Shown one piece after another: positions 7,301-34,207 of a stretch of 34,803 nucleotides of DNA. Source of the DNA: a phage. Under the pieces are notes generated by a model. It saw only the letters and a list, made by a program, of their open reading frames with translations. It was not told the origin of the DNA and did not search any database. Position 1 is the first letter of the stretch; every line of letters begins with the position of its first letter. The stretch lies in the NCBI GenBank assembly GCA_021149145.1, contig GCA_021149145.1_4322.1; one strand, given 5' to 3'. A program made the position numbers and the translations under genes.

Positions 7301-7375
7301 TTTTTACTCCTCTCGTTTGCGTGAAGTAACTATAAGCCACCCTTGGCGGCGCGTCTTTAGCAAAACGTGCTATTT
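7301..7375 (-). promoter_or_regulatory. promoter-leader cassette copy
   Basis: Minus strand reads AATAGCACGTTTTGCTAAAGACG, 17 nt, TATAGT, then TACTTCACGCAAACGAGAGGAG and the ATG. The TAG inside the box is the TerL stop codon. Confidence 0.6.
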
Positions 7376-8989
7376 GATGCCAGCGAGGCGCATCATCCTC
7401 GATTTAGGGTCTTCTGCAATGTTCAGTACCAGGTTGACAGCCATTGTCAAACAGTCTATCTGGTCATCGTGAACATGTGAATCATCTGCCGTGAATGCCG
7501 CAATCTCCGTTAGCAAGCCATTAAGCCAAGTAGCAGACTCCGGAAGGATTACGTTACCAGCTTTAATCTGCGGCAATGCACTCATTACGCGAGTCAGCTT
7601 ATCGTTATCCGGAACGTACGGCTCGATAGGCGTTCGCATAACCCTTCCGGCTGATTGAATCAGGCCAATACCAGAGGCTTTCTTCTCGATGATGATTTTA
7701 CGAAGGATGCCATCTATCTGATTGGATGCCCTAGCCATCTTCTCGAAATCCAATAACTCAGCCTCGAGCTCAGGAGCTTCAAATTTACCGCGCCGCTGGT
7801 CAAGAAGATAAATCTTCCCATCCTTATAACCCCATAGCTGCATGACGCTAAAGTCGCTGTAACTTTTGGTTGTCATCGCAGTATCAAGGACCATAAACCT
7901 GTAATCGTACTTAGCTGGCGGTCGCAGAGTGTCGCTAATGCGTTGAAGCCAGTCTACGTTAATCAGGTTGCCGCCAAGTGCTACTGGTTCTTGCTGATAC
8001 TGGCTAAGGAATGTATAGCTATCAGAATCCCACATTGCAACCAGGTCGTGAACAGACTCCTTGCCAGGGAAATAGCTATAGTACCTAACACCATCACGCT
8101 CAATATATTCGCTTGATAGAACGTCATCAATGAATTGCTGCTTAATCCAGTCAGGAAGCGTGTCGACGTAATCCTCAGTTACGAGCGCCGGTATCTTAAT
8201 CAAGTCGAAGCTAATACCCATACCGCCATTCATCATGAACCACGTACTATCGTTCACATGAAGGCGCTGTTGGATAGAGATAATCGGCGTCGCCTTTCCT
8301 TTTACGGAGCTCGCCCTACGAGAGCGTATTGTATTCTTTAGCATCATGTGATTGTTAGCGCGAAAAACAGCAGAAAGCATGTCGGCTGGTTTGTCAAAAT
8401 CATCTAACAGTACCGCACCACTATACGAATCGGTTATATATCCACCCCTCGCGCCTGTAATTTGGCCGCCAGTGGCTTTAGAGATTGACTCAAACCTGAC
8501 CTTGCCATAGTCATCCAGGACCTGTAGCTCATCATCCTTACACGTACCAAACTTACATGGGAACAACTCCTGGAACTCAACAGACTTAATTAAGTCGCGC
8601 ACACGCTTGGAGTTACGCTTAACCAGTGAGTCAGCATACGATATATTCAGGTTCCTTACCTTTCTCAACTTAACCATTGAGTAGGCTGGGAAGTGAATTG
8701 AGGCAATCTCTGTTTTTCCGCTACCAGGTGCTATGTTGATGATGGTATCTTTACGCTCACCCGCAATAATCTCATCAATGATTCTGCAAAGGTATTTATG
8801 ATGCCAGTTTGGGATGTACCGCTCTCCCTGAGTTATCTGGAACCACACTCGCAAGAATCCCTCGAAGCTATGAGTGGATATCGCCTTAACCGCCATCTTT
8901 TCTGCTGGCGTCATTTCCTCCCAAACTAAATTAGCCATAATTTCACCAATCCAACCATCACGCCAATTAAGAATCCAGTTGTGAAGCAT
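7370..8989 (-). CDS. terL: terminase large subunit
   Basis: Walker A NIAPGSGKTE, an ATPase/nuclease two-domain size of 539 aa, and a position downstream of TerS. An alternative start is the ATG at 8938 (MANLVWEEM). Confidence 0.85.
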   Translation of the reverse strand: MLHNWILNWRDGWIGEIMANLVWEEMTPAEKMAVKAISTHSFEGFLRVWFQITQGERYIPNWHHKYLCRIIDEIIAGERKDTIINIAPGSGKTEIASIHFPAYSMVKLRKVRNLNISYADSLVKRNSKRVRDLIKSVEFQELFPCKFGTCKDDELQVLDDYGKVRFESISKATGGQITGARGGYITDSYSGAVLLDDFDKPADMLSAVFRANNHMMLKNTIRSRRASSVKGKATPIISIQQRLHVNDSTWFMMNGGMGISFDLIKIPALVTEDYVDTLPDWIKQQFIDDVLSSEYIERDGVRYYSYFPGKESVHDLVAMWDSDSYTFLSQYQQEPVALGGNLINVDWLQRISDTLRPPAKYDYRFMVLDTAMTTKSYSDFSVMQLWGYKDGKIYLLDQRRGKFEAPELEAELLDFEKMARASNQIDGILRKIIIEKKASGIGLIQSAGRVMRTPIEPYVPDNDKLTRVMSALPQIKAGNVILPESATWLNGLLTEIAAFTADDSHVHDDQIDCLTMAVNLVLNIAEDPKSRMMRLAGIK

Positions 8990-9056
8990 GTAGCTGCTAT
9001 CATGTAATACGCCAATAATGCCTTAATCAATTATATCATACCAACCCGCCATGTTC

Positions 9057-9581
9057 TTACAGTTTGCTAATCACAGACTCCAGGGCTTCCTTCATCGTTT
9101 CGACGTCGTTAGCAGAAGAGTTATTGCTTATAGTGATCTCCTGCGGTTTGTCGATTCCAAGCTCCTTGGAAATCATGCCAGGGTTAACAATGCCAGATGC
9201 TGCAAGCTGGTATTTCTGCTCGCGAATCACGGAATCAATGAATGCAATCACCTCATCATAACCAGCCGACTTCCTCCATTTCTCGATGGCGCCATGGGTG
9301 ACACCGCAGTAAAGGCAGAATCCGGTTAGCGTGAAGACTCTTGGTTTGTGCACCAGGCTCTCTTTTACCACACCCTGGAAGCTGGCTGTCTCGATTGCAT
9401 TGATTGCCTGGTCCTCAGCCCATGAGAAGTATTTCACGGCGAATTCAAATAGCTGTTCGGGTGTCATGCTTCTGTTTTTGGCTAGCGTTGTAATGTCTGA
9501 GTACTTTTTATTGTACATGGCTTTAAAGTTGCCAGAGCGGACCTTTTCTTGCGCCTGACTGGTGAAGTTTTCGTCTTTCAT
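9057..9581 (-). CDS. terS: terminase small subunit
   Basis: 174 aa immediately upstream of TerL, with an HTH-like segment (FTLTGFCLYCGVTHGAIEKW). AGGAGG lies upstream of the ATG. Confidence 0.6.
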   Translation of the reverse strand: MKDENFTSQAQEKVRSGNFKAMYNKKYSDITTLAKNRSMTPEQLFEFAVKYFSWAEDQAINAIETASFQGVVKESLVHKPRVFTLTGFCLYCGVTHGAIEKWRKSAGYDEVIAFIDSVIREQKYQLAASGIVNPGMISKELGIDKPQEITISNNSSANDVETMKEALESVISKL

Positions 9582-9608
9582 TTTGTTACCTCCTTTGTTT
9601 AGAGATGC

Positions 9609-9617
9609 ATTATATCA
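9609..9617 (-). promoter_or_regulatory. extended -10 promoter candidate for the packaging operon
   Basis: Minus strand reads TGATATAAT just downstream of the terminator and about 30 nt upstream of the terS ATG. No good -35 is present. Confidence 0.35.
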
Positions 9618-9628
9618 TATAGCAAACG

Positions 9629-9651
9629 AAAAAAGCCCTCAAGAATAGGGC
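9629..9651 (-). terminator. rho-independent terminator
   Basis: Minus strand reads GCCCT-ATTCTTG-AGGGC followed by TTTTTT, after the 62-aa ORF. Confidence 0.65.
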
Positions 9652-9704
9652 GAAGTATCGAACAACAACGAGAGATATGAAACAAACAGAGAGTAGAACT
9701 TCTT

Positions 9705-32710: not shown

Positions 32711-32713
32711 GGC

Positions 32714-32908
32714 TCAATCCTTAATTTTAACAATCTTAACAGCTTTCAAATCTTCCTCAGTGAAATATCCGGTCAGAATAGATTTTGCCTCTTTCTTGCT
32801 ATCGAATCGGTCCGCTTCAGATTTGTGAACTGTATATCCAGCGGGGCCACCAAAGTAGCAATCGCCGAACAGTGCGTTGTTTTTCTCTTTAATAATGAAG
32901 TATGGCAT
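32714..32908 (-). CDS. hypothetical protein, first gene of the recombination operon
   Basis: 64-aa ORF with AGAGAGATAGAG upstream. Confidence 0.5.
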   Translation of the reverse strand: MPYFIIKEKNNALFGDCYFGGPAGYTVHKSEADRFDSKKEAKSILTGYFTEEDLKAVKIVKIKD

Positions 32909-32980
32909 TTCTCTATCTCTCTATTGTTGCGTGCTTTCGATTAGTTAATGATGCCGTACGCACAACGCATAGTCCAATTG

Positions 32981-33327
32981 GTATCACCTATTAATTAATC
33001 AAGTATACGCGTATAATTTTGTAACTACGTGTAGACATTGGCATGAGTTACGTTTTTAGCCACTTAAGCCAAGCTATAGCTCAATGTAAATAGTGAGTAT
33101 ACCGTGTATACCGATTTTAGCGGAGGGTGCATAGGTATAGGTGCTGCGCAATACTGTATAAAATCACATGGTATAAAAATTATAAGCGGAACACTCAAGA
33201 ACAGTAGTTACATGATATACAAGATATACATATATAATAATAATAATAAGAGTAAAAGGTTGATATATATAGATATTATAATGTAACTATGGCGTAAACT
33301 GGCGTAACTGGGCGTATACGATTTCCA
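32981..33327. repeat. AT-rich switch-region module, copy B
   Basis: Collinear with 13211-13530. It has the palindrome TATACGCGTATA (33004-33015), AGCTATAGCT (33072-33081), (AAT)4 at 33236-33247 and a 29-bp identical core at 33251-33279. GGCGTA iterons sit at 33291, 33301 and 33311. Confidence 0.8.
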
Positions 33328-33373
33328 GCGGATGCATATGGTATACATGGAGTTACATTGGTTACGCGTAAAC

Positions 33374-33449
33374 AATAGCACGAATAGCTAAAACTAATAC
33401 GCAAAACCCTGTATAGTTGGTCACACAAAAAACGAGAGAGGATTTCAAA
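33374..33449 (+). promoter_or_regulatory. promoter-leader cassette copy
   Basis: Reads AATAGCACGAATAGCTAAAACT, 16 nt, TATAGT, then TGGTCACACAAAAAACGAGAGAGG and the ATG. Confidence 0.6.
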
Positions 33450-34139
33450 ATGGTTATTTGGTCTTTATTTGATGGTTCAGGGCTGGCTGTGAAAGATTGG
33501 GCTGAGGCTTGTCACGAGTGCTACTGTTTCAACTTTGATGAGTCTGACCACGGTAGTTACGGGGATTTAAATGCAAAATTTGAACATGAGAACATCACCT
33601 ACGTTAATGCCTGGATAGATGGCAACTTCGACTTTGATGTGAAGCCTGATATCATTTTAGCGTTCCCGCCGTGTACGGATTTAGCCGTGAGCGGGTCAAG
33701 GCACTTTGAGCGAAAGCGACTGGTTAACCATAACTTCCAGATTGAAGCTGCGGAAACATGTAAAGTTGCTTTTAACTTGGCTAATAAGTACGAAGTCCCA
33801 TACATGATTGAGAATCCAATCAGCGTACTGTCATCACTCTGGAGAAAGCCTAATAAGACTTTCCACCCATATGAATACGGAGGCTATTTGCCGGAAGATG
33901 ATTTACACCCGTTTTTTAGCGACCTAATAAAGCCAAAAGACGCATATCCCAAGAAGACATGCATTTGGTATGGCAATGGGTTTAAATGGCCAGAGGCGAT
34001 TCCTGTGGACGTTAACGATGGATTCTCTGACCAATACAAGAAGCTTGGTGGGAAGAGTAAGAAGACAAAGGTAATTCGCAGTCTAACTCCTCGCGGTTTT
34101 GCAAAAGCAGTCTTCATAGCAAATAGCACGAATAGATAA
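33450..34139 (+). CDS. compact C5-cytosine DNA methyltransferase-like protein
   Basis: The ATG at 33450 follows the leader. Motif I is LFDGSGL, motif IV is FPPCTDLAVSG, motif VI is MIENP, and a motif-IX-like RSLTPRGFAKAVF is present. At only 229 aa, no obvious target-recognition domain is visible. Confidence 0.55.
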   Translation: MVIWSLFDGSGLAVKDWAEACHECYCFNFDESDHGSYGDLNAKFEHENITYVNAWIDGNFDFDVKPDIILAFPPCTDLAVSGSRHFERKRLVNHNFQIEAAETCKVAFNLANKYEVPYMIENPISVLSSLWRKPNKTFHPYEYGGYLPEDDLHPFFSDLIKPKDAYPKKTCIWYGNGFKWPEAIPVDVNDGFSDQYKKLGGKSKKTKVIRSLTPRGFAKAVFIANSTNR

Positions 34140-34207
34140 AGACAAATCCCAAGGATGAGATATCATTACTCCATTGAAACGAAACACACCTTCTAAGGAA
34201 TACGAAA
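34122..34207 (+). promoter_or_regulatory. promoter-leader cassette copy
   Basis: Reads AATAGCACGAATAGATAAAGACA, 16 nt (containing CCCAAGGATGAG), TATCAT, then TACTCCATTGAAACGAAACACACC and the ATG. The box encodes the MTase C-terminus NSTNR. Confidence 0.6.

Follow-up and report, generated by a model that had tools for sequence, protein, structure and literature searches.

A repeated box in a T1-like phage matches the marbox of its host and probably marks class II MarA/SoxS/Rob-type promoters

Introduction

MarA, SoxS and Rob are AraC-family activators that bind as monomers to a site termed the marbox, published as 5'-GCAHWWWWTGYYAAA-3' with the consensus 5'-gcactaattgctaaa-3'. Genome-wide mapping in Salmonella has shown that class II sites of this type are in forward orientation, cluster near -41 and lack a -35 while a canonical -10 is kept, and in the cryogenic electron microscopy structure of the complex of Rob, RNA polymerase and micF, Rob contacts -47G and -45A and occludes sigma70 region 4 from the -35. 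The present analysis concerns a box that recurs in a 34,803-nucleotide (nt) stretch of phage DNA (GenBank assembly GCA_021149145.1, contig GCA_021149145.1_4322.1; the whole stretch is referred to as the window), which comes from a T1-like (Drexlerviridae) coliphage whose closest relative is Escherichia phage ES (93% identity by megablast of positions 13000-20000). It is strongly supported by the comparisons described below that this box reproduces the E. coli marbox almost perfectly, and a T1-like phage would thus probably run most of its early and middle genes via a host stress regulator.

Related arrangements are known in which a different factor takes the place of -35 recognition. In the middle promoters of phage T4, which use the MotA box together with AsiA in a process termed sigma appropriation, an activator site also replaces the -35 ahead of a normal sigma70 -10. 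The class II promoters of CRP and FNR likewise overlap the -35, with symmetric, dimer-bound sites at -41.5. Short repeated regulatory modules that head many small early genes, and that may aid gene shuffling, include the promoter early stem-loops (PeSLs) of T4-type phages and the start-associated sequences of mycobacteriophages.

To our knowledge, the transcription programme of T1-like phages has been a puzzle since T1 and TLS were annotated, with very few canonical promoters and no phage RNA polymerase or sigma factor. The repeated element itself has been described before, which answers a question that an earlier reading of the window from sequence alone (the sequence-only reading) had left open. 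In phage TLS it was published as 21-nt direct repeats (DR1-DR18) with the consensus aaATAGCACnnnTTGnTAAAA, found at 21 places, oriented along transcription and about 76 nt before start codons (Phage 2024;5:173, PMC11447400). The repeats were divided into subgroups with A, T or G at the centre and were said to occur also in T1, Rtp and Rogue1, and their function was not settled, the suggestions being a stoperator, an enhancer-binding site or an UP-like element (PMC11447400). The repeat was not linked to the marbox or to a fixed -10, and the adjacent terminators were listed separately (PMC11447400). No paper tying the marbox or MarA, SoxS or Rob to T1-like phages was found in the searchable literature, and the identification of the T1-like repeat as a marbox within a class II promoter appears to be new.

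Results

Identity of the repeated box

The recurrence noticed in the sequence-only reading is real and far above chance. The window contains 15 strong copies, with the consensus aaATAGCACnnWTTGYTAAAa, where about one is expected, together with one weak copy (22387-22406) and one degenerate copy. When the window was scored with a matrix trained solely on 24 E. coli MarA sites from chromatin immunoprecipitation sequencing (ChIP-seq), at a cut-off of 14 bits, 15 matches were obtained compared with 1.04 expected (maximum 5) in 100 randomised sequences, which were first-order Markov sequences rather than exact dinucleotide shuffles, and all 15 matches were the boxes. The same matrix gave the following numbers of matches of at least 14 bits in related phages and in lambda.

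Window: 15
ES: 20
JulesPiccard: 25
T1: 25
TLS: 22
Vc1: 17
Motto (24 kb): 17
KP36, a Klebsiella phage (20 kb): 9
Lambda: 0

Two of the window copies (14582-14596 and 31725-31739) match gcactaattgctaaa at 15/15 positions and have the same sequence as the yneO site of E. coli, to which MarA binds at 0.3 uM, while a third (7356-7370) agrees with the marRAB marbox, ccacgttttgctaaa, at 14/15 positions. The boxes fit the marbox definition AYnGCACnnWnnRYYAAAYn with its core GCAHWWWWTGYYAAA, and they lie in forward orientation, with GCAC on the side away from the core promoter and AAA on the side facing it. A scan of IMG/VR for ATAGCACNNNTTGYTAAAA showed that contigs with several matches are nearly all of 46-53 kb, as are Drexlerviridae genomes, and no second phage group stood out in it.

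Promoter architecture

For the surroundings of the box, 94 copies were aligned as an ungapped stack; they were drawn from the window and four relatives with complete genomes (ES, JulesPiccard, T1 and TLS). Counted from the start of the box, aaATAGCACnnWTTGYTAAAa at 0-20 is followed by a G at 38, TATAAT at 40-45 and CA at 51-52, and then by an A-rich leader (CA..CGAAACGAA..GAGG). The best -10-like hexamer is at offset 40, exactly 18 nt after the marbox, in 68 of the 94 copies and at offsets 39-41 (17-19 nt) in 83, and it lies past the AAA end, as forward orientation demands, in these 83 and in all 14 full cassettes of the window. Start codons lie at a median of 78 nt from the box start. In the window, 13 of the 15 strong copies and the weak box precede, in order, a TATAAT-like -10, a short leader rich in A, a Shine-Dalgarno (SD) sequence and a start codon.

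Part of what the sequence-only reading had said about this layout was borne out. Its 13 full cassettes, at 7356, 11180, 12525, 13765, 14578, 15358, 18808, 19885, 22391, 26025, 31725, 33374 and 34122, were all upheld; each has a TAnnnT-type hexamer 17-19 nt past the 20-bp box, in agreement with the good -10 it had noted, and start codons, wherever they can be called, are 72-85 nt from the box start. Its class II geometry was likewise supported, in that the cassettes look like activator-dependent sigma70 promoters: the activator site overlaps the -35 position and a good -10 is present without a -35 hexamer. The weak -35 that it had placed next to the box is not a conserved element, since the 94-copy stack contains only about 0.1 bit per position at 21-34 after the box start.

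These features are those of class II MarA/SoxS/Rob (RamA) promoters, in which a 15-20-bp forward site is separated by 18 bp from a canonical -10 and there is no -35. In the E. coli micF promoter, the sequence of which was retrieved for comparison, the marbox ACAGCACTGAATGTCAAAAC is followed by 18 nt, TAGAAT and 7 nt to +1. If the conserved CA of the phage stack is taken as +1, GCAC falls at -47 to -44 and the centre of the box at about -40 to -41, and the profile of the stack is the same as that of the Salmonella class II sites. The discriminator of the phage cassettes, (T/A)ACTCC, also resembles that of micF (TAGAAT-AACTCCC-G). The location at about -41, 18 nt from the -10, differs from that in T4 MotA-dependent middle promoters, where the MotA box is centred at -30 and 11-13 bp from the -10 and the factors are phage-encoded, although the right half of the box, TTGCTAAA, resembles a MotA box. 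In a Pfam scan of 60 open reading frames (ORFs) of the window, which matched 38 families, the 25 listed include neither MotA nor AsiA. The cassettes also differ from PeSLs, which consist of ordinary early sigma70 promoters with a stem-loop, in being defined by a host activator site.

Judged from this architecture, each cassette is likely to be a class II promoter of the MarA/SoxS/Rob type. The 20-bp box, ATAGCACnnWTTGYTAAAn, would serve as a high-affinity marbox in forward orientation, with its A-site GCAC at about -47 to -44, its B-site YTAAA overlapping the would-be -35 and a good -10 located 18 bp (17-19) downstream. One molecule of a host AraC-family activator, which would be Rob, MarA or SoxS in E. 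coli and for which RamA is a further candidate in Klebsiella and Salmonella, would occupy the box and contact sigma70 region 4 and the alpha C-terminal domain (alpha-CTD), so replacing -35 recognition and recruiting the host RNA polymerase. Transcripts would start at the conserved CA about 7 nt past the -10 and carry a 25-30-nt A-rich leader followed by the SD sequence and ATG. The promoters would be compacted into their surroundings, with the stop codon of the upstream gene usually in the box and the terminator hairpin of the upstream unit often in the spacer. Binding and activation of the cassettes by host MarA, SoxS or Rob during infection, like the positions of the transcript starts, are predictions that we infer from the DNA sequence. 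The phage hosts are consistent with the scheme, as those of 831 related phage records are almost all Enterobacterales. Bacteria of this order encode the MarA/SoxS/Rob family.

The leader is a recurrent feature in its own right. Its consensus, TACTCCATCGAAACGAAAGAGAG, is found at 14623-14645, 31676-31698, 34167-34185 and 22344-22362, and in the distant relatives Vc1, Motto and KP36 it takes the form caACGAAACGAAc. Such a leader could be a translation or RNA-stability signal.

A quite different explanation of the same layout is that the promoters need no factor and that the box is an intrinsic upstream element, making UP-like contacts with the alpha-CTD or acting through a displaced -35 of the form TTGnTA. 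The box, which spans -52 to -31, has A/T-rich ends, its TTGYTA resembles a -35 hexamer, about 31% of the copies have TGn ahead of the -10, and T1-like phages grow well in unstressed cells; UP-like enhancers were also proposed in the TLS paper (PMC11447400). Against this, the most conserved positions of the box are G or C (G5, C6 and G14 vary little or not at all, and 81 of the 94 copies have C8), unlike the A/T-only UP elements, which are found at -40 to -60 ahead of a -35 hexamer, and the box reaches to -31, where it replaces the -35 rather than lying upstream of it. Neither would the match to the marbox be explained, and we consider an intrinsic element improbable. As a displaced -35, TTGYTA was rejected on its 22-nt spacer to the -10, which is 5 bp too long for sigma70. 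A sigma54 promoter was rejected by inspection: TGGCAC-N5-TTGC resembles the box, but the GG-to-GC spacing is 10 instead of 12 and a sigma70 -10 follows.

Stop codons and hairpins within the cassettes

The cassettes are commonly fused to the gene upstream. Of the 94 copies, 67 have the end of an upstream ORF (45 codons or more) in or immediately beside the box (register -5 to +25), and the stop codon within the box is the TAG of aTAGcac in 29 cases and the TAA of gcTAAa in 15. In the window the embedded stops are TAG at 7370-7372, 22403-22405 and 31739-31741 and TAA at 14593-14595, 18809-18811 and 34137-34139. The small inverted repeats that the sequence-only reading had pointed out in some spacers also proved to be real and enriched hairpins, since 32% of the spacers fold at -5 kcal/mol or better compared with 12% of shuffles. 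The T-run of such a GC hairpin often doubles as the -10 (7336-7350, 14603-14616 and 18786-18803), so that a promoter of this kind encloses the terminator of the preceding unit. The published TLS terminators T62 and T57 are located directly after DR12 and DR10 (PMC11447400).

It might therefore be supposed that the box is a stop-codon and hairpin module for 3' ends or RNA processing, or a stoperator-like roadblock, and that its position before a -10 is secondary. The box can indeed form a 5-bp hairpin in which G5 pairs with the C or U at position 15, terminator hairpins follow it directly, upstream ORFs close in it, and the stoperator analogy has been raised for TLS (PMC11447400). This hairpin, with a stability of -1.3 to -3.7 kcal/mol and z-scores of -1 to -2, is weak and shows no compensatory changes, and a role of this kind leaves unexplained the conserved unpaired flanks and the loop-edge C8 and T12, as well as the constant 18-bp gap before the -10 and the sequence match to the marbox. 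Stoperators of the mycobacteriophage L5 type, which are dispersed through transcribed DNA, do not have such a fixed 18-nt relation to a -10 and would require a repressor, of which a virulent phage of this kind has none known; neither a repressor nor an integrase is evident, and the phage belongs to a virulent family. A role in RNA or at gene ends is considered very improbable.

Symmetry of the box and the phage regulator

The sequence-only reading had taken the box for a palindrome bound by a dimeric factor. Its inverted-repeat core, TAGCA-N5-TGCTA, is certainly in excess, as 11 matches with at most one mismatch are present in the window compared with 1.45 expected, a number that none of 100 shuffles reached, and the five position pairs of the dyad are complementary in 62-99% of the 94 copies. 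The dyad is already contained in the host consensus gcactaattgctaaa, and the conservation pattern of the box is that of an asymmetric site. A2/A18 and C8/T12 are strongly conserved yet complementary in only 2-3% of the copies, and the symmetry is broken by the strongly conserved A2, C8, T12, A18 and A19, all of which fit the marbox. G5 never varies, whereas its dyad partner, position 15, holds C 58 times and T 31 times, which corresponds to the Y of the marbox. The two-fold symmetric conservation of half-sites that characterises a dimer-bound class II site is not present, and at five strongly conserved positions the box departs from the symmetry of CRP and FNR sites. A dimeric factor is thus not supported, and the site is of the type bound by MarA, SoxS and Rob monomers.

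A phage protein could nevertheless read the box, and the leading candidate for such a role is the following gene product.

26055..26528, plus strand: phage 'transcriptional regulator' of 157 amino acids (aa), homologue of T1 gp23 and TLS gp57, with a single Cro-like helix-turn-helix (HTH)

This regulator has weak Pfam matches to P22_Cro and CI HTH families, the mean predicted local distance difference test (pLDDT) score of its AlphaFold2 model is 88.7, and its best folds in the PDB are Cro proteins. It would bind as a dimer to the TAGCA-N5-TGCTA dyad near -42 and either activate a delayed-early or middle regulon or shut the promoters off later. Apart from the complementarity of the dyad, this view is favoured by the fact that the regulator is the only recognisable DNA-binding protein and occurs in 831 related phage records. 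In all seven phages examined (window, T1, TLS, JulesPiccard, Vc1, Motto and KP36), moreover, the regulator ATG has a reversed box 7-12 nt away (12 nt in the window), and the regulator's own -10 overlaps that of the box promoter, which is the layout of an immediate-early gene feeding a switch.

On the other hand, the box is identical to a host site that evolved for a different fold, the double-HTH monomer, and a chance match at 15/15 positions combined with the micF spacing is very unlikely. The asymmetry at A2, C8, T12, A18 and A19 and the invariant G5 opposite a variable C or T are also not those of a dimer site. A search with the fold gave Cro-type single-HTH proteins only. The putative recognition helix diverges among the relatives (VSHQTVEQW in the window, VSNQTVQGW in T1, VNLKTVWGW in TLS and VCCVRLTNAY in Vc1), and overall identity of the regulator is 44-56%, yet window, T1, TLS and Vc1 share one box consensus; such a variable helix and a constant box argue against the regulator as the reader. 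A phage-encoded reader is therefore regarded as unlikely, if less so than the intrinsic element and the gene-end module.

Two further candidates were rejected. That the regulator is a hidden double-HTH protein was not borne out by a Foldseek search with the AlphaFold2 model, which returned solely Cro/cI-type single-HTH matches, all with E-values above 0.04. A MarA-like protein encoded by the phage was rejected on a phmmer search with MarA and SoxS of 2411 ORF translations from five genomes, in which the best E-value was 0.76, and on the Pfam scan of the 60 window ORFs, in which no AraC-type family was among the 25 listed of 38 matched. With no phage AraC-type protein found, the phage-timed middle regulon of the sequence-only reading is not established, and a host factor is the likeliest reader.

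Several properties of the regulator locus are worth recording. No common palindrome, such as might be a shared operator for the regulator, was found in the regulator-helicase intergenic region of the seven phages. A sigma70-type promoter of the regulator's own is recognisable in five of them (T1, TLS, JulesPiccard, KP36 and Motto), for example TTGAAT-17-TATAAT in T1 and TTGACT-17-TATCAT in TLS, and one hexamer is poor in the window phage and Vc1. At 25990-26060 of the window two promoters stand back to back, with the TATAAT of the regulator (plus strand, about 25998-26003) overlapping the TATTAT of the helicase (minus strand, 26000-26005) and the marbox located in the regulator leader, and this divergent overlapping layout, which could act as a switch, is kept in T1, TLS, JulesPiccard, Vc1, Motto and KP36. 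In the protein, residues 1-40 (26055-26180) include DKRTxNGNNGTxRxxDKKxRKR, the most conserved part with many invariant residues in 42 homologues, in a segment for which disorder is predicted (pLDDT 57-64). Two cysteines are conserved in these homologues, C119 in every one of them and C102 in at least 90%.

Copies in the window

Up to about 9 kb the window contains minus-strand head and packaging genes, and beyond this early, replication, recombination and lysis genes on either strand together with one tRNA-Arg. Canonical sigma70 promoter matches are not more frequent in it than in shuffles (35 compared with 33.6 expected, and 17 compared with 29.4 expected), and the box cassettes are thus the main promoter candidates of the window. 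That cassettes head transcription units, as the sequence-only reading had claimed, is true for most units outside the structural genes. In T1 and JulesPiccard they are mostly in the early and middle regions, and a few precede small genes within the structural module. The copies with an associated -10 are as follows.

7298..7373, minus strand: full cassette with marbox 7354-7373 (ATAGCACGTTTTGCTAAAGA, 18.2 bits), spacer hairpin 7336-7350, -10 TATAGT 7329-7334 and ATG 7300; heads a 117-aa ORF between the terminase large subunit and portal genes, with the terL stop TAG within the marbox
11122..11197, minus strand: full cassette with marbox 11178-11197 (17.6 bits), 18-nt spacer with hairpin, -10 TATAAT 11154-11159 and ATG 11124 (78-aa ORF)
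12499..12542, minus strand: marbox 12523-12542 (ATGGCACTTTTTGCCTAACG, 14.4 bits), 18-nt spacer with hairpin and -10 CATAAT 12499-12504; no clear start codon
13766..13840, plus strand: full cassette with marbox 13766-13785 (19.2 bits), 19-nt spacer, -10 TATGGT 13805-13810 and ATG 13838 (61 codons)
14579..14657, plus strand: full cassette with marbox 14579-14598 (20.9 bits, the matrix maximum; its 15-mer, GCACTAATTGCTAAA, is the published consensus marbox), spacer hairpin 14603-14616, -10 TATATT 14617-14622 and ATG 14655
15359..15434, plus strand: full cassette with marbox 15359-15378 (15.8 bits), 18-nt spacer, -10 TATAAT 15397-15402 and ATG 15432 (527-aa DUF3987 helicase-like protein)
18748..18825, minus strand: full cassette with marbox 18806-18825 (19.8 bits), spacer hairpin 18786-18803, -10 CATAAT 18782-18787 and ATG 18750; heads a 57-aa ORF upstream of holin, endolysin and spanin
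19825..19904, minus strand: degenerate copy AAGTAGCACTTTTTTGTTAAT, whose half-sites, GCAC and TAA, are one T further apart than usual; hairpin GCCTCAAAGGATTGAGGC, -10 CAAAAT, SD sequence and ATG 19827 follow; the box (19885-19904) scores 11.4 bits with a TLS-derived matrix and below 10 bits with the E. coli matrix
22322..22406, minus strand: full cassette with a weak box, marbox 22387-22406 (ATAGCACGAATTTCCAAAGA, 11.9 bits), 18-nt spacer, -10 TATTAT 22363-22368, leader CAACTCATCGAAACGAAAC and ATG 22324 (64 aa); the box contains the stop TAG of the upstream VRR-NUC gene
24592..24636, minus strand: marbox 24617-24636 (15.4 bits), 19-nt spacer and -10 TATATT 24592-24597, the next long ORF being from 24533; located in the LAGLIDADG/intein insertion of the helicase gene
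25956..26042, minus strand: full cassette of the ATP-dependent helicase with marbox 26023-26042 (18.8 bits), 17-nt spacer, -10 TATTAT 26000-26005 and ATG 25958
26505..26582, plus strand: full cassette with marbox 26505-26524 (17.1 bits), which lies within the regulator gene at its 3' end, -10 CATAAT 26543-26548 in the loop of terminator hairpin 26535-26558, SD sequence and ATG 26580 (60-aa ORF upstream of primase); the same arrangement is present in JulesPiccard at 28363, minus strand
31666..31742, minus strand: full cassette with marbox 31723-31742 (20.9 bits; its 15-mer is the consensus marbox, and it holds the stop TAG of the upstream exonuclease gene), 18-nt spacer, -10 TATCAT 31699-31704, leader TACCCCATCGAAACGAAAGAGAG and ATG 31668 (ERF recombinase)
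33375..33452, plus strand: full cassette with marbox 33375-33394 (17.6 bits), 17-nt spacer, -10 TATAGT 33412-33417 and ATG 33450 (229 codons; weak cytosine-methylase similarity)
34123..34210, plus strand: full cassette with marbox 34123-34142 (15.2 bits), 18-nt spacer, -10 TATCAT 34161-34166, leader TACTCCATTGAAACGAAAC and ATG 34208 (76 aa)

Two strong copies are orphans.

28024..28043, minus strand: orphan marbox GTAGCACTAATTGCCAAAAT (18.6 bits) lacking a suitably spaced -10
21152..21171, plus strand: orphan marbox TCAGCACTAATTGCTAATTT (18.1 bits) with no -10, antisense within the minus-strand ORF 21118-21369

The first of these, flanked by the primase terminator and the tail-fibre ATG (28065), is oriented against both genes, and it is also found in T1 (34905, plus strand) and JulesPiccard (27299, plus strand). 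It lies directly downstream of a plus-strand extended -10, TGGTAGAAT (28010-18), ahead of the tail-fibre gene, and an activator bound to it would occupy about +1 to +20 of that plus-strand promoter, which is a repressing position. The second orphan is kept at the homologous place in JulesPiccard (33106, minus strand).

Three box-only copies had been listed in the sequence-only reading, of which the one at 28027-28046 is a true box, namely the first orphan, and the other two are not members. That at 21086-21104 scores below 10 bits. That at 10203-10220 is a different, perfect palindrome, TAGCG-CAAT-CGCTA, 10 nt upstream of the minus-strand tRNA-Arg(CCT) at 10118-10193, and could be an element related to tRNA processing or to a promoter. 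Three copies were absent from that list, 24617-24636 (minus strand), 26505-26524 (plus strand) and the orphan at 21152-21171 (plus strand).

The ATP-dependent helicase gene (22824-25958, minus strand) is split into three overlapping ORFs in different frames. The N-terminal ORF has an intein N-splice motif, the middle ORF a LAGLIDADG_2 endonuclease, and the C-terminal ORF an intein C-splice motif and Helicase_C. This looks like an intein/homing-endonuclease insertion, and JulesPiccard, in which the helicase is a single 664-aa gene, is without it.

Discussion

Compared with the class II promoters of the host, the phage cassettes are distinguished in several ways. A virulent genome of 48 kb has about 20-25 of the sites, while ChIP-seq in the host yields about 20-60 bound sites per chromosome. 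The phage sites are also nearer the consensus than most host sites, with a median in the window of about 18 bits compared with 14.8 for the E. coli training sites, and position 3, which is free in host sites, is fixed as A in the phage. Unlike the host promoters, the phage cassettes are joined to the stop codon of the gene upstream, to a terminator hairpin and to an A-rich leader that is conserved.

A number of observations weigh against activation of the cassettes by a host factor. In unstressed cells little MarA or SoxS is present and most of the Rob is sequestered, yet T1-like phages grow fast in ordinary broth. The literature searched yielded no transcript 5'-end data for T1-like phages. 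The text of a Keio single-deletion screen with the T1-like phage LL5 makes no mention of rob, marA or soxS, and that no single required factor is named there could reflect either redundancy or independence. Two related records labelled with Vibrio cholerae and Pseudomonas aeruginosa as hosts bear the same boxes; these count for little because they have 78-83% DNA identity to Salmonella, Citrobacter and E. coli phages and are nested among them. The phage boxes are tighter than the host consensus, in that the free position 3 is A and position 11 is T, an extra constraint that could come from a second reader or from the embedded TAG stop codon, and it may be because of this stop codon that position 3 is fixed as A. 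Finally, a marbox always abuts the start of the phage HTH regulator gene.

With these points considered, recognition of the cassettes by MarA, SoxS, Rob or RamA is still the probable reading, and a consensus marbox in the class II position provides a concrete and testable mechanism for the puzzle of T1-like transcription. On a wider scale, the whole Drexlerviridae family, of which more than 800 genomes are sequenced, may have ceded recognition of the promoters of most early and middle genes to these host stress activators, a suggestion that is made tentatively from the sequences at hand. The cassettes would also provide about 20 natural, compact marbox promoters of graded strength for studies of class II activation.

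If this is true, phage development would be tied to how far the host is under antibiotic, oxidative or bile-salt stress. Bacteria that are multidrug-resistant through derepression of mar or ram might be better hosts, and the 20-25 consensus sites per genome, multiplied by replication, might drain activators from the resistance regulon of the host. The overlapping divergent promoters at the genes for the regulator and the helicase would act together as a switch governed by how much activator is available. TolC, the receptor of TLS, is itself MarA-activated. Infection by a large, therapeutically used phage family would both depend on and respond to the intrinsic multidrug-resistance regulon of enteric bacteria, which would bear on phage-antibiotic combinations, on the performance of phages in the bile-rich gut and on phage steering.

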